DNA from: Patescibacteria group bacterium | GTDB lineage: Bacteria; Patescibacteriota; Microgenomatia; UBA10105; UBA927 | Length of the DNA stretch: 64,000 nt | Reading direction: 5' to 3' | Assembly (NCBI GenBank): GCA_049322955.1 | Contig: JBMOPU010000033.1 | Span: forward strand, 128,784 to 192,783 | Shown: positions 3,279 to 62,331 of the stretch, piece after piece | Position numbering within the stretch: position 1 is the first letter of the stretch | Layout of the letters: the number at the start of each line of letters is the position of its first letter | Notes under the pieces: model-generated | The model's input: the letters and a program-made list of their open reading frames with translations, nothing else | Told to the model about the DNA's origin: nothing | Database searches by the model: none | Position numbers and translations under genes: made by a program

Positions 3279-3902
3279 ATGCAAGGCGGCTTACACAAAA
3301 TAACCGTGCAAAAGCCAAACAGAAAACGCCTCTTTATCGCCATACCAATAGAAGGCTCATGGCAGTCGGCTCTTGCCGCATTGCAAACGAAAGCTGAAGA
3401 ATCACATGCCACAAGTGCCGTGCCTACCCATTGGACACCGCCTCATCATTTTCATATCACCGTTCGGTTTGTCGGTACTGTCGATAAACGCTATATTCCG
3501 GGGATTATTGCGGCAATTCGTGTGCTCACCGGCAGGCATCGGACATTTTTGTTACCGTTTCACGGAATCGAATATGCGACCCGAAATGAACCAAAAATGA
3601 TATGGGCACGGTTTGCCAAAACCGCATCGTTCAACGGACTGGTTCGGGAAATGACGCGTCAGATTTCCCGTTTCCTGCAAACGCGCGGGGATGTCCGGTT
3701 ACTCCGGTCCGGCCATCGTGTTATTCCCCACGTAACGCTTGCCCGCGCGAAAGGCAATTTAACTGCTACGGGAATGCGTTCTCCCGATGCGGTGCGTCAT
3801 GATCTCCTTCTTCCCGTCACGTCGCTAGTTCTGTATGAATCGGTAAGCGAGCAAGGTCATACCGACTATAAAACGCTTGCAACGTTTCAATTACCTCGCT
3901 AA
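3279..3902 (+). CDS. 2H phosphoesterase, ThpR/LigT-like RNA 2',3'-cyclic phosphodiesterase (2'-5' RNA ligase family)
   Basis: Two H-x-T-x motifs (HHFHITVRF and PHVTLARA) at the spacing characteristic of the 2H/LigT family. Confidence 0.65.
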   Translation: MQGGLHKITVQKPNRKRLFIAIPIEGSWQSALAALQTKAEESHATSAVPTHWTPPHHFHITVRFVGTVDKRYIPGIIAAIRVLTGRHRTFLLPFHGIEYATRNEPKMIWARFAKTASFNGLVREMTRQISRFLQTRGDVRLLRSGHRVIPHVTLARAKGNLTATGMRSPDAVRHDLLLPVTSLVLYESVSEQGHTDYKTLATFQLPR

Positions 3903-3919: not shown

Positions 3920-5128
3920 ATGAGGATCAAATATGCATTCCTCGTAGTTCTTTTTGCCGTTATTGCGTACGGCGCATGGTTTGTGTACACCAACCTGCGC
4001 GGGAGCGGTGCGGCGTTTGGTCCGATCCCGCAATTGCCGGAACAACCCGTAGAGCCGTCGGGGACGGCTCCCGGCAATACCACCGGTCTTCCGCTCACCC
4101 TGCCGCCGGGATTTTCACTTTCGGTATATGCAAAGAATCTCGGTGCGCCGCGGGTGCTTGCAGAGGATTCGACCGGGACAATCCTTACCAGTATTCCGTC
4201 ACAGAGCAAGGTGGTGGCATTACCGGATGCCGATAGTGACGGCGTAGCGGATACCGTGATCACGGTTGTCGAGGGACTTTCCCTTCCGCACGGTATCGCG
4301 TTTCATGACACACGGCTATATGTGGCCGAAACCGACGCGGTCTCTTCATATGCCTACGATCCGACGAACAAAAAAGCGACGGATAAAAAAAAGCTTTTTG
4401 ATCTTCCCGCGGGCGGGAATCATTTCTCGCGCTCGATAGGATTCGGTCCCGACGGAAAACTTTATGTTTCCATAGGCTCCAGCTGTAACGTCTGCGTGGA
4501 AAAGGATCCCCGAAGAGGAGCGATATTTGTTGCCAATGCGGACGGTTCGGATTTTCGTAGCTTCGCCACGGGATTACGAAATACGGTGTTTTTTACTTGG
4601 CATCCTCAAACAAATGAAATGTGGGGGACGGATATGGGGAGGGATCTTTTGGGAGACAACACGCCGTTTGAAGAAGTAAATATCATTAAAAACGGCGGCT
4701 TTTACGGTTGGCCGTATTGTTACAACAATAAAACGCATGACACGACCTTCGATGCAAGTACCAAAGCCAGGGAAAAATGCGAGGCAAGTATTTCGCCGCA
4801 TATAACATTTCAGGCACACTCGGCGCCGTTGGGTTTGGCGTTTATTCCCGACGAATGGCCTGCCGATTATCGGGGTGATCTGCTCGTAGCCTATCACGGA
4901 TCCTGGAACAGGAGTATGCCGACGGGATACAAAATCGTGCGATTTGATCTCGATGAACGTCAAATCGCCAAGACAGAAACCGATTTCATTGCAGGTTGGC
5001 TTGTGGGTGACGGCGCGCTCGGCAGGCCGGCAGGGCTGTTGTTCGGGCGTGATGCGGCACTCTATATAAGTGATGACAAGTCGGGGACGATCTACCGCAT
5101 GTTCCCCCGTTCGGCGGCAGGCAATTAA
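3920..5128 (+). CDS. PQQ-dependent sugar dehydrogenase (soluble glucose/sorbosone dehydrogenase-like beta-propeller), N-terminally membrane-anchored
   Basis: Signal/TM N-terminus. Motifs PHGIAFHD…LYVAET, GPDGKLYVSIGSSCNVC and GWPYCY are typical of the sGDH/L-sorbosone dehydrogenase family. Confidence 0.65.
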   Translation: MRIKYAFLVVLFAVIAYGAWFVYTNLRGSGAAFGPIPQLPEQPVEPSGTAPGNTTGLPLTLPPGFSLSVYAKNLGAPRVLAEDSTGTILTSIPSQSKVVALPDADSDGVADTVITVVEGLSLPHGIAFHDTRLYVAETDAVSSYAYDPTNKKATDKKKLFDLPAGGNHFSRSIGFGPDGKLYVSIGSSCNVCVEKDPRRGAIFVANADGSDFRSFATGLRNTVFFTWHPQTNEMWGTDMGRDLLGDNTPFEEVNIIKNGGFYGWPYCYNNKTHDTTFDASTKAREKCEASISPHITFQAHSAPLGLAFIPDEWPADYRGDLLVAYHGSWNRSMPTGYKIVRFDLDERQIAKTETDFIAGWLVGDGALGRPAGLLFGRDAALYISDDKSGTIYRMFPRSAAGN

Positions 5129-6835
5129 TTAGCCGAAGGTGAATGCATACAGCTCTATATCCCCGTCAAGAACTTCAAGCTTGAGGATATGTTTGCCTGC
5201 GCTTGGGAGTTTAATAAGCTTATATAACCGGTCGGTGGTTATCTTAACGTTACTTTGCTCAACATCTTCGCCTTTGAACTTCTCGGGGACGGGCACACCG
5301 TCAAGGAAAACGCGGATTCCCCCTTTGGCATCCTCCTTGGGTCGCATGACGAGGAACACCTCTTTTGCCTCAAAGTGATAGGTGAGGGTGGCTCCCGTCT
5401 GCGGCATTGCCCGTTCTCCGCCGATCGTCCATTTGCCCGTGAATGCAAAGCTGTTCCTGGGAAGGATTGCGGGTGCGGAAAATTCCGTGAGAATATCCGG
5501 CCGAACCGGTTCGGGAGAAACAATTCCCGCCATCCGTTCATACCCTAAGTAGGTTTCCGGTGATCTCGTCTCCACGCGGTACGTCGGATTTTCGATCTTT
5601 TCATCAACGGTAGATCCCGCTTCTTTAAGAAGCCTTTGGATCATCTCTTCCGTTTCATCATAGTCGCCCTCACCGAAATGCGTGTAGCGGATTTTTCCGT
5701 TTTTATCGATGAGGTACTTGGCCGGCCAATAACGGTTGGCATACGCCCGCCAGGTTTTATAGTCGTTATCCTGCATGATGGGGTACGTAAGTTCAAAATC
5801 AGCGGCCGCTTTTTTCACGTTATCAAGATCTTTTTCGAACTCGAATTCAGGCGTATGTACGCCGACGATAACAAGTCCCTTGTCTTTATACTTTTCATGC
5901 CATGACCGGATGTAGGGGAGCGTACGAATGCAGTTTATGCAGGTGTACGTCCAGAAATCGACCAGCACCACTTTGCCGCGCAACTCTTGCATGGTGAGGG
6001 GCGCGGAGTTTATCCACTCACCGCCGGCAATAAATTCAGGTGCGTTGCCGTAATTATTCTCTAACAGATCGGTCATCATAGATCCTCCTTTTTGTAAGTC
6101 TGTTAACCGGTTTCGTACCAGTGCATTATCTTCAAGTTGGGTAAGCCCCGTGCCGTATGCGGGAAATTTGTCCAATATAAACGTCTGAAACGCTCGATCC
6201 CAGGAATGATAAATGGCGAATGCGGTAAGGAGCATAAGGATACCGAATGCTTTCTGAATCCGTGCGGTATTTGCCAGTAACCAAGGGTGGTTGGTAAGCA
6301 GTGACCTGCCGCCCAAGGTGATGGCAAGGAGGGGAATTGCCGTCCCTAGGGCGTATGCAAGGGTGATGATGACCGCGTTAAGCCCTACGGTGCTGGTGGC
6401 GGCAAGTGTAATGATAGATGCAAGAATAGGACCGACGCAGGGTGTCCAGAGCAATCCCAAACTCACCCCGACCAATATGCCCGAGAGATACCCGTCAGTT
6501 TGTGTTTGTTTGGGGACAAATGAGGTCACTTTTGAGAAGAATTTTTCCATTGTAATCTGGAACGCCGGGACAAGCAAACTGACGCCGAAAAAGGCGATAA
6601 CAACGACGGCAACGAGCCGCAGGGTATCAGCGGGAAGACCCGTGCTCCGTACTATCGCGGAAAGAAAAAGGGTAAAGAAGGTAAAACTTGCGACAAACCC
6701 GGTGACCACCCCCAACGGCCGGCGTTTGCCTCCCGTGATACTTCCCGAAAGGACCACCGGGAGGATAGGGAGAATACACGGGGAAAGGATGGTAATGAGT
6801 CCGCCGAGAAATGCAAAGAAAATTAGGATAATCAT
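5129..6835 (-). CDS. dipZ: DipZ-like thiol:disulfide interchange protein with a CcdA/DsbD membrane domain, a thioredoxin-like (TlpA/ResA) domain and a C-terminal domain
   Basis: N-terminal polytopic CcdA-type domain with conserved Cys (LSPCILP…WTPCVGP). Thioredoxin fold with WTYTCINC. The C-terminal beta-rich domain matches the architecture of mycobacterial DipZ. Confidence 0.8.
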   Translation of the reverse strand: MIILIFFAFLGGLITILSPCILPILPVVLSGSITGGKRRPLGVVTGFVASFTFFTLFLSAIVRSTGLPADTLRLVAVVVIAFFGVSLLVPAFQITMEKFFSKVTSFVPKQTQTDGYLSGILVGVSLGLLWTPCVGPILASIITLAATSTVGLNAVIITLAYALGTAIPLLAITLGGRSLLTNHPWLLANTARIQKAFGILMLLTAFAIYHSWDRAFQTFILDKFPAYGTGLTQLEDNALVRNRLTDLQKGGSMMTDLLENNYGNAPEFIAGGEWINSAPLTMQELRGKVVLVDFWTYTCINCIRTLPYIRSWHEKYKDKGLVIVGVHTPEFEFEKDLDNVKKAAADFELTYPIMQDNDYKTWRAYANRYWPAKYLIDKNGKIRYTHFGEGDYDETEEMIQRLLKEAGSTVDEKIENPTYRVETRSPETYLGYERMAGIVSPEPVRPDILTEFSAPAILPRNSFAFTGKWTIGGERAMPQTGATLTYHFEAKEVFLVMRPKEDAKGGIRVFLDGVPVPEKFKGEDVEQSNVKITTDRLYKLIKLPSAGKHILKLEVLDGDIELYAFTFG

Positions 6836-8647: not shown

Positions 8648-10750
8648 ATGGCAAATCCACAAACAACCGTAACAGAAAATCGCGACGTTCCTCTTGATAA
8701 GGTAAGAAACATCGGTATCATCGCGCACATTGACGCAGGAAAAACCACCACTACCGAGCGCATCCTTTTTTACACCGGACGAAGTTATAAGTTGGGCGAC
8801 ATTGACGAAGGCAACACTCAAATGGACTGGATGGAACAGGAACGGGAACGCGGCATTACCATCGTGTCCGCGGCGACCACCACCTTCTGGAAAGGCTTTC
8901 GTTTCAACATCATTGATACTCCCGGACACGTTGACTTTACCGCGGAAGTCGAGCGATCGCTTCGCGTGCTTGACGGCGGCATTACCGTCCTTGATGCGGA
9001 AGAAGGCGTACAATCACAGTCTGAAACCGTATGGCATCAGGCGGACAAATACAAGGTACCTCGTATCTGTTTTGTCAACAAAATGGATAAAATCGGAGCC
9101 GATTTCCGAAACACCATAAAACAGGTCGAAGAACGACTGGGTGCGCGTACCGCCGTTATGGTCGTTCCCATCGGACGCGAAAACACTTTCCGGGGAGCCG
9201 TTGATTTGTTGACCCGCGAAGCGCATGTGTGGAATACCGATGATTTGGGAGCAAACCCCGAGACAATCGAAATTCCCGAAGAGCTGAAAGCGGAAGTGGA
9301 AGAATCACGACATGCACTCATTGAACGCGTTGCGGAAACGGATGACGCATTGCTTGAGAAATATCTCGGCGGCGAAGACATCAGCGTCGAAGAGCTCAAG
9401 GCGGCGCTTCGTCGCGCCGTCATCGCCTACAAGCTTGTTCCGGTCTATTGCGGCACGAGTTTGAGAAACAAAGGGGTGCAACCGCTTCTTGATGCCGTCG
9501 TCGATTATCTTCCTTCGCCGCTTGATCTTCCCGAAGTGGAAGGAACCAACCCCAAGACGAACGAAAAGACGACAAGAAAACGCGTGAACGAAGAAAAGTT
9601 TGCCGGTTTGGCGTTTAAAATCCAGATTGATCCGCACGTCGGAAAACTTACCTACGTCCGTATTTATTCCGGAAAACTCGAATCGGGATCCTATGTCTAT
9701 AACTCCACCAAAGGAGCAAAGGAACGCGTCGGCCGGTTACTTCTCATGCATGCAAACCAACGGGAAGAAATCCGGGAAGCATATGCGGGAGAAATTGTCG
9801 GTGTCGTCGGCTTTAAAGATACGATTACCGGAGATACCATCTGTGATGATGCCAACCAGATCGTGTTAGAGCAGATTACCTTTCCGGAACCGGTTATTTC
9901 GTTGGCTATCGAGCCCAAGACCAAAAACGATCAGGAAAAGATGGGCTATGCCTTACAACGGTTAAGCGAAGAAGACCCGACATTTAAGATCAAATCCAAT
10001 CAGGAAACGAATCAGACCATTATCTGGGGTATGGGTGAGCTTCATCTCGAAATTCTCGTTGATCGCATGAAGCGGGAGTTTAAAGTCGAGGCAAATGTGG
10101 GCGCTCCTCAGGTTGCCTACAAGGAAACCATCAAGAAAATGGCTGAAGGAGAAGGAAAGTATATCCGACAAACCGGAGGTCGCGGTCAATACGGTCATGC
10201 AATGATCCGCATTGAGCCGAAAGCACGCGGCGAAGGATTTGAATTTATCGATGCTATCAAGGGAGGCGCGGTTCCCAACGAATTTATTCCTCCGATTGAA
10301 AAGGGTATTGTGGAAGCGATGGAAAACGGCGTGTTGGCGGGATATCCGCTGGTTGATATGTCCGCAACGCTGTATGACGGAAGTTATCATGATGTCGACT
10401 CTTCGGAAATGGCCTTTAAGATCGCGGGTTCCATGGCACTGCAGGATGCGGTAAAGCACGCGGATGCGACGATTCTCGAACCGATCATGAAGGTCGAGGT
10501 GACAACCCCCGACGAATACATGGGAGATTGTATCGGTGACCTTTCCGCGCGTCGTGCGCAGATCATGGGATCCGAACAGCGGGGAACCGTGACGGTGATT
10601 CTAGCCATGGTACCGCTTGCGGAATTGTCCGGATATGCCACGGTACTTCGTTCATTATCGAAAGGAAGAGCAACCTATTATATGGAGCCTTCCCACTATG
10701 AAGAGGTTCCGAAGAATATCCAGGAAAAGATTATTGCGAAGAACGTCTAA
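8648..10750 (+). CDS. fusA: elongation factor G
   Basis: GTP-binding motifs ([14 protein letters not shown]) and full-length EF-G similarity. Confidence 0.97.
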
Positions 10751-58235: not shown

Positions 58236-58932
58236 AAAATCCCCGCGTTCGGATCGGCGCTATTGCCGGTGAACACGGGGATTTGTGTTGTTGTTCGTTT
58301 CCCATAAACGCTTTGATTGAAAAAGTAATTATGTTGTGTGTCACTCCTTCAGAAAAAGCGTTTATGAGACAAAATGTCGGGGGAGTATAAAAAATAAAAT
58401 ACGCAAACCAGTATGCGCAGTGTATGTTCAATAGCCCCCCCGAAGAATAAGAAGACCTCGACCCGAGGTTGAGGTCTTCTTATCCGTATTCGGTTGTAGG
58501 TCGGGTTGTAGTCACCCGGCGTGGTGGGAGTGGTCAGGGTGTCCTTTGCGGCACCATGAACACAGTCCGTCCTTTGCACCGAGTGTCGGCGCGCCGCATT
58601 TTCTCCCTTTCAGGAAGCCGCGACTTTTGTGAAATTTTCCGTTCTTACATTTGCAGGTCTGTTGCGTATGGGTAAGCTTCTCTTTACCTGCCTGTGGCTC
58701 CGGTGTTTGTGCCGGGGTTGGGTGCGTTTTTTGTCTCATACGGTCCTCTTTAGTCATAAAAATTTGGCGGATGGGTGGGTATTACGGTTTGTATCTCTTT
58801 CTTTTCGTACTCCTCTGTTTGGTTGGGATTTTATTTTTTTATTGCCCCCGATTTTTGAACAACGGAAAAGACGGAACGGACAGTATTTCCGTCTTTGCCA
58901 TCGCTCAAAAGATGTTAAGGTGCCTCACAACA

Positions 58933-59109
58933 CTACTGCGTTGCTTCTTTTTCGTCTCGTGCCGTACCGAGTTCTTCCGCCATGGGAAATACGACCGTTA
59001 CCGTCGTTTCCTTATCGGTTACCACCGCAATTTTCCAGACAGACGACCGTCGTTCCGGCTCATCGGGTTGCATTGCTCTTTCATTTGCTTTTTCCATAGT
59101 TTTTGGCAT
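58933..59109 (-). CDS. hypothetical small protein (58 aa)
   Basis: Hand-translated as MPKTMEKANERAMQPDEPERRSSVWKIAVVTDKETTVTVVFPMAEELGTARDEKEATQ. It has a strong AAGGAGGG Shine-Dalgarno sequence. A 9-bp hairpin follows at about 58868-58900. Confidence 0.35.
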   Translation of the reverse strand: MPKTMEKANERAMQPDEPERRSSVWKIAVVTDKETTVTVVFPMAEELGTARDEKEATQ

Positions 59110-59275
59110 TAAAAAACCCTCCTTTTTTGGGGAGGGTCCGTGTTATGCGAATTTTTTTATTGTGTTTATGCGCGCATCACACGACCCTCTCCGACGATTC
59201 GGAGGGTAATAAGGGTCATAAAAAGATGCGCAGATTTCTGCATAAGAGCTCCATTATATAAAGAGGATCATTATC

Positions 59276-59304
59276 TTGTCAACCGTACTTTCGCGGCATA
59301 TAAT
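59276..59304 (+). promoter_or_regulatory. sigma70-type promoter TTGTCA -17- TATAAT driving the aspS leader
   Basis: -35 TTGTCA at 59276-81. A 17-nt spacer. -10 TATAAT at 59299-304. Confidence 0.5.
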
Positions 59305-59309
59305 ACGAA

Positions 59310-59465
59310 AAGCAGGCGCTGATGGTCTGACACACCGGAGCTTTTCGGGGTAATAACCGAGACGGGTACGCCCGTTACAGCAATAAAGAGAAAAAAATAA
59401 GGTGGTACCGCGAATTACCCGTTCGCCCTTATCCTAGTAAGGAGAACGGGTTTATTTGTGGCATA
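59310..59465 (+). promoter_or_regulatory. T-box riboswitch-like leader of aspS. It has the conserved T-box sequence AAGGUGGUACCGCG (59399-59412) and a terminator hairpin (59417-59452) plus a U-run.
   Basis: ataaGGTGGTACCGCGaatt matches the T-box consensus (AGGGUGGNACCGCG). It is followed by acccgttc…gaacgggt TTATTTG. GAC triplets occur upstream. Confidence 0.55.
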
Positions 59466-59476
59466 ATGGAGGATGT

Positions 59477-61360
59477 ATGCGGACACTCGCAATTGAAACG
59501 ACGGCAAAAGTCGGTGAAACAGTTACTCTTCAGGGATGGGTGCTTGCCCGTCGTGATCACGGCAAGATCATGTTTTTGGATCTTCGCGACCGATCGGGGG
59601 TGGTGCAGATGGTCGGCACGAAAACCCTGGGTGATGCGCGTGCTGAAGATGTGATCGAAGTCACCGGATTGGTGAAACAGCGCCCCGATTCTATGGTGAA
59701 CGCCAAGATTCCCACGGGAACCGTCGAATTGGAGATCCAAAGCCTTACCGTGCTTACCCACGCCCATGAAATGCCGTTTCCCATCGATACCGATGGGTAT
59801 GAGGTGAATGAGGAAATACGCACCAAGTATCGGTATCTTGATCTTCGTCGACCCCGGATGGCACACAATATCCGAATGCGCAGTAAGGTAGTAGGGTTTA
59901 TCCGAAACTTTCTGTATGAACGGGATTTCGTGGAGATAGAAACCCCGATTTTAACCAAAACAACTCCCGAAGGTGCTCGGGACTTCCTGGTGCCGTCACG
60001 ATTACAACCGGGAAAATTTTACGCTTTACCGCAATCACCACAGCAATACAAACAAATGCTTATGGTAGCCGGCATGGAACGGTACTTTCAAATCGCCCGT
60101 TGTTTCCGCGATGAAGATCCCCGCAGGGATCGCGCGTACGGAGAATTTACCCAGCTCGACATGGAACTTTCCTTTGTCACGCAAAATGACATCCTTGAAC
60201 TTATTGAGGAGATGTTCACGAAACTCGTCACGACGATGTTCCCGGAAAAACACATCAGCGTTTCCCCTTGGCCGCGGCTTTCACATAAGGAAGTCATGGA
60301 TAAGTATGGTACCGACAAACCGGACTTACGCAAGGATAAAAACGATCCGAATGAACTCGCATTTTCATGGACGATTGATTTCCCATTGTTTAATGAACAA
60401 AAAGAGGATGACTTTTTTTACGGTTCCGGCAAAGCGAAATTTGCTCCCAGCCACCATATGTTCACCGCTCCTCATCCTGACGATATTCCTCTTTTGGATA
60501 CCGATCCCATGAGGGTTCGCGGACTACAGCATGATCTTGTATTAAACGGGTTTGAGGTCGGAGGTGGCAGTATCCGTATTCATCAGGCGGAGGTGCAGGC
60601 CAAGGTTTTTGACCTCATCGGTTTTACGGAGGCGCAAAAACAGGAGTTTTCCCATATGCTTACGGCATTCACATATGGTGTTCCGCCGCACGGAGGGATT
60701 GCTCCCGGTATAGATCGGTTTTTAATGACGATTCTTGGCGAACCGAGTGTGCGTGAAGTCATGGCGTTTCCCACGTCGGCTTCTGGTACGACCAGCGTTA
60801 TGGATGCGCCGAGTCTTGCTACTCCTGAACAGCTCAGCGAGCTTTCGATCGCCGTTTTGAAAAATGAGGTGCAGAAGCCGGCAAGTGGGGAAGCGGTATA
60901 TGAAAAAATCATCGAAGGATTGAATCAAAAAAAGTTTTCATTTGAGCCGTACGAGCATGTTGCGGTCAAAACGTCGGAAGAAGCCGCAAAGGTTCGCAAC
61001 ACGCCGCTTCGCGAAGGAGCCAAAGCACTGCTTTTGTATGCGGATGACAAACCCGTCATGGTGGTTGTGGCAGGCGACAGAAAACTCGATATGAAGGCCT
61101 TCAAAGCACTCTATCACGTTCGCGATCTTCGCATGGCGACACCGAAGGAAGTTGAAGAAGTAACCGGAGTTACGATCGGCGCGGTACCTCCGTTTGGGCA
61201 TCTTTTCGGCATAGCGCTGTATATGGATGCGGCGATAAAAACCAATACGCATGTGTCCTTTAACGCGGGACTTCATACCAAATCCGTTCGTATGAAGGAA
61301 ACCGATTACGAGAAGTTTGCAAGTCCCACGATCGGTGAGTTTTCCAAAGAAGCGGTATGA
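59477..61360 (+). CDS. aspS: aspartyl-tRNA synthetase lacking the bacterial GAD insertion domain, fused to a C-terminal YbaK/ProX-type aminoacyl-tRNA deacylase domain of about 165 aa
   Basis: Anticodon-binding OB fold. Class II motifs (FRDEDPRRDR; GGGSIRIH; GIDRFLM). There is no GAD domain between GTDKPDLR and WTIDFPLF. The C-terminal 165 aa align with YbaK (KKFSFEPYEH…; VTGVTIGAVPPFG). Confidence 0.9.
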   Translation: MRTLAIETTAKVGETVTLQGWVLARRDHGKIMFLDLRDRSGVVQMVGTKTLGDARAEDVIEVTGLVKQRPDSMVNAKIPTGTVELEIQSLTVLTHAHEMPFPIDTDGYEVNEEIRTKYRYLDLRRPRMAHNIRMRSKVVGFIRNFLYERDFVEIETPILTKTTPEGARDFLVPSRLQPGKFYALPQSPQQYKQMLMVAGMERYFQIARCFRDEDPRRDRAYGEFTQLDMELSFVTQNDILELIEEMFTKLVTTMFPEKHISVSPWPRLSHKEVMDKYGTDKPDLRKDKNDPNELAFSWTIDFPLFNEQKEDDFFYGSGKAKFAPSHHMFTAPHPDDIPLLDTDPMRVRGLQHDLVLNGFEVGGGSIRIHQAEVQAKVFDLIGFTEAQKQEFSHMLTAFTYGVPPHGGIAPGIDRFLMTILGEPSVREVMAFPTSASGTTSVMDAPSLATPEQLSELSIAVLKNEVQKPASGEAVYEKIIEGLNQKKFSFEPYEHVAVKTSEEAAKVRNTPLREGAKALLLYADDKPVMVVVAGDRKLDMKAFKALYHVRDLRMATPKEVEEVTGVTIGAVPPFGHLFGIALYMDAAIKTNTHVSFNAGLHTKSVRMKETDYEKFASPTIGEFSKEAV

Positions 61361-62331
61361 AACGTCTTACCCTGCCTAACATACGCAATCTCTGGGTGAT
61401 AAGACACGGGGATAAAATCCTGTTTTTAACGGTGTGTGTCATCTTCTTTGTTTTCGTGCCGACGCCAAAAATGTATGGGAAGCTCGTTTCACAGGAAGGA
61501 CCGTTGAAGCGTCTCATACCCTTTCCGACACCGACGCCAGCGCCGTACCCTATCAATAAAACCGGTGTGTATCCGGGGTATGAGATTACGGCTCAGGGTG
61601 TTATCGTTCACGATCTCGACAGCGGTGTAACGCTGTACGGCAGAAACACCCAAGAACTCCTGGCACCGGCATCCACAACAAAGATCATGACCGCGCTTAT
61701 TGCCATTGAACACTATGATTTGGATGAAGTGGTCACGGTGAAAACCGTTGCAAATTCCGGAGCAGTCATGGGGCTTGTTCCTGGAGAGCAGATTACGGTG
61801 GAAAATCTCTTGTACGGCGCCCTCATACAATCAGGCAACGATGCGGCATGGGCACTTGCCGAGCATTTTGACGGGGGAGTCGAGAAATTTGTCGAAGCGA
61901 TGAATGAAAAAGCCGCCGCTTTACATCTGACGCATACGCACTTTACCAACCCAGTAGGCTACGATGATCCGAATCATAAAATGTCGGCAAGTGATCTGGC
62001 GCGACTTTCCGCATATGCGTTAACCGATAAAACAATTGCCAAGATTGTCGCCATACCGCAAATAACCATTTCCGATGTTACCCACACCCGATTTCATCCG
62101 CTGACAAACGTCAACGCGCTTTTGGGAAAGATCCCGGGGGTGGCGGGTATCAAAACGGGCTGGACGGAAGAGGCGGGGGAGAATCTTGTCACTCTGGTCA
62201 CGCGTGACAATCGGCGCATCATCATGGTTGTGCTAAAAAGTCTCAATCGCTTCGGGGATACCGAACAACTCATTAACTGGGTTTTTTCAAACTACGAGTG
62301 GCGGGTATATCAGCCGCCTTCGGAAAATTAA
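61357..62331 (+). CDS. D-alanyl-D-alanine carboxypeptidase (S11 peptidase, PBP5/6-like)
   Basis: SxxK motif ASTTK, SGN (QSGND) and KTG (IKTGWT). Confidence 0.8.
   Translation: MKRLTLPNIRNLWVIRHGDKILFLTVCVIFFVFVPTPKMYGKLVSQEGPLKRLIPFPTPTPAPYPINKTGVYPGYEITAQGVIVHDLDSGVTLYGRNTQELLAPASTTKIMTALIAIEHYDLDEVVTVKTVANSGAVMGLVPGEQITVENLLYGALIQSGNDAAWALAEHFDGGVEKFVEAMNEKAAALHLTHTHFTNPVGYDDPNHKMSASDLARLSAYALTDKTIAKIVAIPQITISDVTHTRFHPLTNVNALLGKIPGVAGIKTGWTEEAGENLVTLVTRDNRRIIMVVLKSLNRFGDTEQLINWVFSNYEWRVYQPPSEN

Follow-up and report, generated by a model that had tools for sequence, protein, structure and literature searches.

Why should an aspartyl-tRNA synthetase (AspRS), which is regarded as a synthetase that needs no editing, carry an aminoacyl-tRNA deacylase-type domain at its C-terminus? 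This question is raised by aspS-edit, a gene located in a stretch of 64,000 nucleotides from a Patescibacteria group bacterium (contig JBMOPU010000033.1; hereafter the window). Its open reading frame (ORF; 59477..61360 on the + strand, as for all window features below) encodes 627 residues plus the stop codon within a single open frame (59456..61360), and a Shine-Dalgarno sequence GGAGG is found at 59468-59472, ahead of the ATG at 59477. As a preliminary description of this locus had proposed, the product combines an oligonucleotide-binding (OB) fold, a class II catalytic core and a deacylase-type tail, which are recognized by the Pfam models PF01336, PF00152 and PF04073, respectively. The tail belongs to the superfamily of the INS domain of bacterial prolyl-tRNA synthetase (ProRS), whose catalogue has so far consisted of domains inserted in ProRS or single-domain proteins. 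We propose that the window protein is a bifunctional enzyme, in which the fused INS-type domain, presumably competent for catalysis, would act as a deacylase dedicated to the products of AspRS. This reading, to which we grant an even chance, is ranked first because the partner is always AspRS and never ProRS, because three types of AspRS from two domains of life are involved, and because the regulation responds to tRNA-Asp.

How is the protein built? The OB-fold anticodon-binding domain (residues 16-93; 59522..59755) matches PF01336 (tRNA_anti-codon, E=6e-12), finds its best PDB matches in the mycobacterial Asp/Asn enzymes 4RMF and 5W25, and displays His28 within an RRDHG motif. It is followed by a class II (IIb) catalytic core (residues 111-433; 59807..60775) that covers profile positions 1-306 of 308 in PF00152 (tRNA-synt_2, E=1e-109) and whose QSPQ, FRDED and GGG/R motifs are invariant in 77 fusions. 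The protein passes the equivalog cut-offs of the bacterial-type AspRS models NF001750 (598 bits; cut-off 443) and TIGR00459 (536.6 bits; cut-off 373.85), versus 227 bits for the archaeal-type model, and these scores define it as phylogenetically bacterial-type. The core lacks the GAD insertion, as first noticed in the preliminary description: a Pfam search finds no PF02938 (GAD) match in the protein, and its alignments to Thermus thermophilus AspRS 1EFW and to NF001750 both split into two stretches around a deletion scar, RKDKNDPNELA (residues 285-295; 60329..60361). Query residue 285 corresponds to position 294 of 1EFW and query residue 295 to position 419, with 295-418 being skipped, which means that ~124 residues of bacterial AspRS are reduced to ~9. 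This absence is a derived loss, as GAD is retained in the relatives L014, L015 and P0140 (L and P numbers refer to homologous loci and database proteins, respectively). Its initial interpretation as a typical trait of non-discriminating AspRS is not supported, since the enzyme is bacterial-type and the Asp/Asn enzymes 4RMF, 5W25 and 4WJ3 are 599-616 amino acids long with GAD included. The AspRS body stops at residue ~461, aligned to position 578 of 580 in 1EFW, which is the normal C-terminus. A linker delimited by model confidence and conservation (residues 462-470; 60860..60886) then leads to the first helix of the INS/YbaK-superfamily editing domain (residues 471-627; 60887..61357). In the full-length model, residues 460-466 score below 50 in the predicted local distance difference test (pLDDT), and neither an internal Met nor a start codon occurs within the linker.

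What kind of domain has been appended? PF04073 (tRNA_edit) matches residues 494-614 over its entire length (profile 1-123 of 123) with E=1e-30 and 106.8 bits (cut-off 25.5). The AlphaFold2 model of the editing domain alone reaches a pLDDT of 93.6, and its significant Foldseek matches in the PDB all belong to the INS superfamily (37/37), with template modelling (TM) scores of 0.76-0.89 for free-standing homologues. Both the Pfam search and the predicted structure, the two checks suggested at the outset for this region, assign it to the INS superfamily. The motifs quoted from the tail are present in the sequence, with KKFSFEPYEH at residues 485-494, AKALLLYADD at 515-524, GAVPPFG at 568-574 and FNAG at 595-598. 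The catalytic Lys516 (codon 61022-61024) is aligned with the K of 'KTL' in 1DBU and 2DXA, its counterparts being K46 in YbaK and K279 in Escherichia coli ProRS, and the loop G568-A-V-P-P-F-G574 (61178-61198) contains the GxxxP motif (G568-A-V-P-P572). Lys516 and the GxxxP loop are invariant in the 77 fusions and in 104 free-standing relatives, while K516, G568, P572 and G598 are also invariant when divergent fusions at 32-47% identity are added to the 77.

Within the superfamily, a PDB search with a profile made from 14 divergent fused editing domains gave 3OP6, the Legionella protein lpg1207 of unknown function, as best match (3e-30). T. thermophilus ProX 2CX5 (ProXp-x type) comes second (4e-16), far behind 3OP6 and level with YbaK (1DBU/2DXA, 7e-16 to ~1e-15), followed by weaker matches to APE2540 (1WDV, 5e-14), ProRS-INS (1e-12) and ProXp-ala (1e-8). 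According to a 2024 review (PMC11295145), 2CX5/2Z0K represents ProXp-x, the superfamily apart from INS consists of single-domain proteins, and three INS-type clusters, ProXp-7/8/9, have no known function; this agrees with the early remark that YbaK-like domains otherwise occur free-standing or inside ProRS. Two assignments were rejected. A close kinship with ProXp-ala (5VXB, 1VJF) was discarded, with no single-sequence match at E≤1, one of the weakest profile matches and the lowest Foldseek ranking (1VJF 5e-8; 9BU5 8e-5). Membership of YbaK proper, the Cys-tRNA-Pro deacylase, was discarded as well, with 52.7-56.5 bits for TIGR00011 (cut-off 153.25) and 18.5-22.2 bits for NF007951 (cut-off 243). 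The models and the fold place the C-terminal domain in the INS/YbaK superfamily, in a clade of its own that is not the YbaK equivalog, so that the former label of a YbaK-type tail is right for the superfamily and wrong for the family. This subfamily has the signature H494, T499, S500, R507, D584, F595-N-A-G598 and S603, of which S500, R507, D584 and S603 are common to the fused and the aspS-adjacent free forms and missing in 3OP6. Presuming that the alignment to E. coli ProRS-INS is free of indels, S500, A503 and R507 would share one helix face and correspond to INS pocket positions. If this placement is right, the pocket would be larger and polar compared with the Ala-specific INS pocket.

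Is the fusion genuine? An apparent fusion could result from a frameshift, from a missing stop codon or from chimeric assembly of two genes in the window, and a one-base error would be enough to mimic it, since natural split pairs lie a few nucleotides apart (L009, L014). The probability of such an artefact is practically negligible in view of the same frame and linker length in more than 110 clusters and in L002-L005, including contigs of 1.2 Mb. Indeed, a homologue search retrieved the fused architecture (PF01336 + PF00152 + PF04073) at full length in >110 clusters defined at 90% identity (63-100% identity), which originate from NCBI, JGI, ENA and Logan assemblies, and tblastn revealed a continuous single frame in the four independent loci L002-L005. 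The fusion is therefore neither a frameshift nor an assembly join, the two artefacts that would have refuted the preliminary description, and its phyletic survey reveals a lineage-wide trait, all named clusters being Gottesmanbacteria, Woesebacteria or Patescibacteria (Microgenomates). The editing domain is under purifying selection: in 108 fusions, its column conservation is the same as in the anticodon-binding domain (0.715), the linker being the least conserved part (0.58). As a separate matter, the closest relative of the window's gene, found in L003 (contig CAYUZE010000004.1; 92% protein identity), carries the database label 'uncultured Gammaproteobacteria bacterium', which almost certainly reflects a mislabelled Patescibacteria bin.

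How did the fusion arise? The editing domain alone, searched against 1.84 billion representatives, retrieved 795 proteins at E≤1e-10. Among the best 150 of these 795, most are free-standing proteins of ~155 amino acids (35-48% identity) and 14 are AspRS fusions or fusion fragments; a single-sequence scan of species genomes with the same domain returned 6 loci. Among the free-standing homologues sampled, five were informative, and four of these lie next to aspS (L016 is the exception and L018 is too short for judging), compared with a chance adjacency to one given gene of ~0.2% in a genome of ~1000 genes. L014 and L015 contain a GAD+ aspS and then a separate edit gene encoding 156 amino acids, located within 4 nt or overlapping. 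L009, from a WWE3 bacterium, has a GAD-less aspS (471 amino acids), a short gap (4995 to 5001) and an edit gene encoding 157 amino acids, followed, as in the window, by the Peptidase_S11 gene, an arrangement found in three independent assemblies. These split pairs share synteny with the fusion, their aspS partner being either GAD-less or GAD+, and P0140 (744 amino acids) joins the OB, catalytic, GAD and tRNA_edit domains in one protein. In L001, AspRS is 86% identical and the synteny is the same, the editing domain is gone and no remnant of it was found within ±6 kb. The fusion is derived from a conserved aspS–deacylase operon by joining of two genes, the series from operon to fusion being visible in these loci, and the editing domain works as a separate small protein in some lineages. 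Since the editing module accompanies GAD+ AspRS too, in fused or adjacent form, the loss of GAD and the fusion were independent events. Fused forms are spread over several groups of a neighbour-joining tree built from 144 edit domains, whose resolution is too low for counting fusion events. Other architectures are also present in the edit clade (P0123, 448 amino acids; P0126, 491; P0262, 405), with three tandem edit domains or an edit–BON fusion.

Does the association extend beyond bacteria? GAD+ fusions constitute >100 clusters with 51-100% identity to P0140, named Candidatus Woesearchaeota or Nanoarchaeota, and the genes that flank them are archaeal, e.g. those for a TFIIB-type zinc ribbon, a replication factor C-like protein and Translin. 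In the archaeal locus L017, Translin is followed by an archaeal-type AspRS gene (NF003483, 494 bits; cut-off 353) and, 2 nt later, by a free-standing edit gene. Scanning metagenomes with P0154, a free-standing protein from archaea, yielded zero relatives, and L017 consequently stays a singleton. The deacylase is linked to three forms of AspRS: bacterial GAD-less, bacterial GAD+ and archaeal-type. The presence of a bacterial-type AspRS in Woesearchaeota suggests a transfer between DPANN archaea and bacteria resembling the candidate phyla radiation (CPR). We also observed that a Translin–aspS locus is conserved in DPANN (L012 5001-8145; L019 8001-18235; L021 10001-21203; L017 2159-4462), in which AspRS is either bacterial GAD+ or archaeal and its partner is a fused edit domain, a free edit gene or asnS.

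In which pathway could the fused enzymes operate? None of asnS, gatA, gatB, gatCAB and proS was found within the 64-kb window. In two Woesearchaeota lineages (57% identity), the fused gene precedes gatC-gatA-gatB by 4.5-5 kb and no asnS is seen within ±10 kb, whereas an unfused archaeal relative has asnS directly downstream (NF003037, 506 bits). Archaeal GatCAB is restricted to the formation of Asn-tRNA-Asn (Sheppard et al. 2008, as cited in PMC3367201). This contrast suggests non-discriminating activity of the fused enzymes and an association of the module with the indirect Asn pathway. The same proximity to gatCAB would also suit a mainly non-hydrolytic domain, which would hold, protect or hand the 3' end of Asp-tRNA-Asn (or tRNA-Asp) to GatCAB as a transamidosome adaptor, or would boost tRNA binding after GAD loss. 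Transamidosomes have been presented as channelling assemblies of an editing-like kind (PMC3367201), appended domains such as the C-terminal domain of plant ProXp-ala can boost tRNA binding, and the fusion coincides with GAD loss in the window. However, the invariant catalytic Lys and GxxxP loop of both fused and free forms argue for retained hydrolysis, the presence of the module with GAD+ AspRS is at odds with a replacement of GAD, and in several lineages the module is a separate small protein; a non-hydrolytic role is in our view very unlikely. Besides, non-discriminating enzymes differ from discriminating ones by His rather than Leu in the RRD-x-G motif of the anticodon domain, a difference that is visible in 4RMF and 5W25 versus 1EFW and 6HHV. 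His28 was nevertheless rejected as a marker, as His is present alike in fused, split, domain-lost and unfused-plus-asnS AspRS and is therefore uninformative.

What does the regulation of the gene tell? Upstream of aspS-edit, a minimal T-box leader (59310..59459, or 59310-59433 in its narrower delimitation) is detected by Rfam RF00230 with 54.2 bits (E=1e-10 to 2e-11). This score is below the Rfam gathering threshold of 93, with ~80 Stem I model positions reduced to 9 nt, and means that the leader would be missed by standard annotation. All T-box elements could nonetheless be located: a K-turn GCGCUGAUGG/CCGGAGC (59316-59341), an ultrashort Stem I with the 7-nt loop CUGACAC (59327-59333) that presents the Asp specifier GAC (59329-59331) followed by a purine, a leader hairpin (59362-59375), the T-box sequence AAGGUGGUACCGCG with its UGGN bulge (59399-59412), and a terminator/antiterminator in which CCCGUUC/GAACGGG and the U-run UUUAUUUGU (59418-59459) precede the ribosome-binding site, with a synthetase gene downstream. 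The fold of the leader has a z-score of -2.65. The specifier GAC with its following A, the T-box sequence and the U-run are kept in six loci including the window, the others being L001 (~5525-5700), L002 (~9830-9990), L003 (2439-2562), L005 (~2440-2600) and L009 (~3420-3570). Compensatory changes are found in the specifier stem (GGU/ACC, GGC/GCC, GGUCUG/CAGGCC), and the T-box bulge UGGC/UGGU is complementary to, or wobbles with, the G73 discriminator. Together, these elements define a predicted Asp-specifier T-box ahead of aspS. As it also precedes the split operon of L009, the synthetase and the deacylase would be co-induced by uncharged tRNA-Asp. Directly 5' of the leader, a promoter-like site (TTGTCA, 17 nt, TATAAT; 59276..59304) corresponds to a consensus match only, at 11/12 positions, and two such sites were found in the region overall for 1.8 expected from shuffled sequence.

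Three other observations were made around these leaders. The ~0.9 kb from recJ to the aspS promoter in the window (58236-59110) is conserved only in the closest relative L003, and no convincing ORF or RNA family was found in it. Terminator-like hairpins are in excess between 58200 and 59500 (8 found versus 1.7 expected). In L001, an insert of ~148 nt (~5850-6003) with the inverted repeat ACCGGG…CCCGGT is located exactly at the start of aspS, with the ATG duplicated on both sides, and may be a miniature mobile element.

Could the domain serve ProRS rather than AspRS? It may be a general or ProRS-directed trans-editing factor (ProXp-x/ProX-like, acting on Ala-, 2-aminobutyrate (Abu)- or Cys-tRNA-Pro) that would compensate for a ProRS devoid of INS in these reduced genomes, AspRS being an abundant and stable dimeric carrier. 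The proS gene of L002 (14861-16003, - strand) encodes a bacterial-type ProRS of 380 amino acids that matches a 559-position model in two stretches with INS missing, and all of the 120 closest ProRS homologues from Microgenomates (P0396-P0515; 383-437 amino acids) are without PF04073 (120/120). Throughout the Microgenomates, ProRS is of bacterial type, measures ~415 amino acids and is devoid of INS. An INS-less ProRS implies the absence of cis-editing of Ala-tRNA-Pro, which the editing domain could perform in trans. The tRNA-Pro of the window carries the bacterial identity set C1:G72 and A73, elements read by bacterial ProRS and ProXp-ala according to PMC10164551. The closest characterised relative by profile is T. 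thermophilus ProX (2CX5/2Z0K), and INS-like factors are anchored elsewhere, as illustrated by the plant C-terminal domain or by MCP3 of Trypanosoma brucei, which belongs to a synthetase complex together with AspRS. On the other hand, none of the examined loci has the module beside or fused to proS (that of L002 lies on the other strand at a distance of ~3 kb), and its partner is AspRS in the bacterial GAD+, GAD-less and archaeal-type forms. The T-box specifier is Asp and not Pro, AspRS binds tRNA-Asp by its anticodon, so that tethering would not help the capture of tRNA-Pro, and among superfamily members the module resembles ProXp-ala least (1e-8). We regard a ProRS-directed function, the main rival reading, as possible, albeit on the unlikely side. 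The preliminary description had put forward two ideas, a proofreading of tRNA-Asp/Asn products and a Cys/Ala-tRNA deacylase recruited to a non-discriminating AspRS that feeds GatCAB, and either may hold. Support is gained for the link to AspRS and, in archaea, for that to gatCAB, and a ProRS-directed function gains from the INS-less ProRS as well.

How would a deacylase dedicated to AspRS operate? The architecture, the purifying selection, the retained catalytic motifs, the series from operon to fusion and the Asp T-box are shown by the present data; that the domain hydrolyses, that it acts on what AspRS produces and which aminoacyl group it removes are inferred. In the proposed mechanism, AspRS with its secondarily lost GAD would charge tRNA-Asp, and probably also tRNA-Asn. 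Products of class II enzymes are typically released fast, after which the tethered domain would capture the 3' end of an aberrant aminoacyl-tRNA, a capture that the co-translated free-standing protein would take over in split lineages, and the ester bond would be hydrolysed via Lys516 and the GxxxP oxyanion loop. Uncharged tRNA-Asp would switch the unit on through the T-box, i.e. at Asp scarcity, when mischarging should be likeliest. Candidate substrates are Asp on tRNA-Asn escaping GatCAB, Asn on tRNA-Asp, D-Asp and an Asp analogue. A more specific version of this AspRS-dedicated reading is that the domain represents the first AspRS-dedicated proofreading, as a hydrolytic safeguard of the indirect Asn pathway that would clear Asp-tRNA-Asn escaping GatCAB or Asn-tRNA-Asp resulting from sloppy amidation. 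The substrate would then be read by the polar pocket (S500, R507, D584) together with the first base pair of the acceptor stem. This version is tentative and, taken as a whole, quite unlikely. If true, ultra-small CPR and DPANN organisms would have solved an Asx fidelity problem that is otherwise left to EF-Tu discrimination and channelling.

A number of points weigh against a deacylase dedicated to AspRS. AspRS is not known to have a synthetase-specific need for editing, the substrate cannot be deduced from the sequence, and the structural model gives no inter-domain geometry. The leader is kept in the domain-less L001, which indicates that the T-box belongs to aspS and not specifically to the deacylase, and the clean loss of the domain in this close relative shows that it is dispensable in at least one lineage. 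Operon membership may partly mirror common ancestry or horizontal transfer, without the module having been recruited independently. In archaea, the gatCAB/asnS contrast is based on few loci and on views of ±10 kb, and the adjacency to an archaeal-type AspRS concerns one locus (L017), with no replicate in the metagenome scan. Finally, the characterised members of the INS superfamily, except ProXp-ST, act on ProRS errors (PMC11295145), and these targets of its relatives, combined with the INS-less ProRS of the lineage, make a ProRS-directed role plausible.

What surrounds the gene? The window is a typical Patescibacteria core region with rpoC, fusA, tuf, secY, recA, rny, miaB, secD, cca and recJ. 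Immediately downstream, a gene for an S11 D-Ala-D-Ala carboxypeptidase-like protein (61357..62331, + strand; NCBIfam and Pfam matches, all under equivalog cut-offs) overlaps the stop codon of aspS-edit by 4 nt (ATGA). This Peptidase_S11 neighbour is present in the window, L001, L009 (5520-6482) and L014 (2457-3395), and is located upstream in L002. In the database proteins P0129 and P0160, an edit domain and Peptidase_S11 are even joined in one ORF. The association between Peptidase_S11 and the editing domain may be functional or may just result from synteny or gene calling.

How new is this organisation, and what does it imply? Neither an AspRS–INS fusion nor an aspS–deacylase operon turned up in the literature searched, although a passing mention is possible in the review that defines ProXp-7/8/9. 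The fusion proteins are already in public databases, annotated just as aspartate--tRNA ligase. The finding is that of a known domain on an unexpected synthetase, which its operon, phyletic and regulatory context makes testable. A deacylase linked to AspRS across CPR and DPANN, two large radiations with reduced genomes, implies either an unrecognised fidelity problem at Asp/Asn codons or an unexpected organisation of ProRS proofreading, and the fused, naturally split and naturally deleted forms offer a defined set for assays. Besides, this work gives functional access to a clade of the INS superfamily that is large (795 representatives, E≤1e-10) and uncharacterised, provides a compact example of evolution from operon to fusion, and points to gene sharing between CPR and DPANN. 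The predicted minimal Asp T-box also illustrates tRNA-sensing regulation in CPR bacteria, with an unusually small Stem I.

How does the system compare with those already described? The covalent INS-type editing domains known are the INS of bacterial ProRS and the N-terminal ProXp-ala of protozoan ProRS. As in bacterial ProRS-INS and in the ProXp-ala–ProRS of Plasmodium and Trypanosoma, a class II synthetase carries here an INS-superfamily domain with the Lys and the GxxxP motif, and editing probably proceeds by re-capture after release, as is to be expected for class II enzymes (PMC11286415). Unlike in these systems, the partner is a class IIb enzyme, AspRS, for which no editing is known, and the domain belongs to another clade of the superfamily; it is also attached C-terminally via a short linker, whereas the INS of ProRS lies between motifs 2 and 3 and protozoan ProXp-ala is N-terminal. 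With the free-standing members of the INS superfamily, it shares the fold (TM 0.76-0.89), a size of ~155 amino acids and the catalytic motifs, and it is itself free-standing in several CPR and DPANN lineages. It differs from them by scores below the YbaK cut-offs, by its own signature (S500/R507/D584/S603) and by its genomic tie to aspS. Like the Asn-transamidosome (non-discriminating AspRS·tRNA-Asn·GatCAB), the module would be concerned with keeping Asp-tRNA-Asn out of translation, and archaeal fusions lie near gatCAB; however, the transamidosome corrects by amidation and channelling instead of hydrolysis, and no deacylase component has been described in it. A precedent for a covalent wiring between AspRS and the handler of its product is the AspRS–GatC fusion NF009460, in which a bacterial-type AspRS also bears a C-terminal accessory module of the Asx-tRNA pathway. 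In that case, the module GatC is an amidotransferase scaffold and no hydrolase, and the window protein, with 409 bits for a cut-off of 1379, is not a member of this family. As for the leader, ultrashort-Stem-I T-boxes are known from actinobacterial ileS, where a small terminal specifier loop and a T-box sequence control a synthetase gene. The window leader resembles them by its reduced Stem I, its specifier in a small terminal loop, its conserved T-box sequence and its predicted control of a synthetase gene, and it differs by its Asp (GAC) specifier, its CPR host and an expression platform that resembles a transcription terminator with a U-run.

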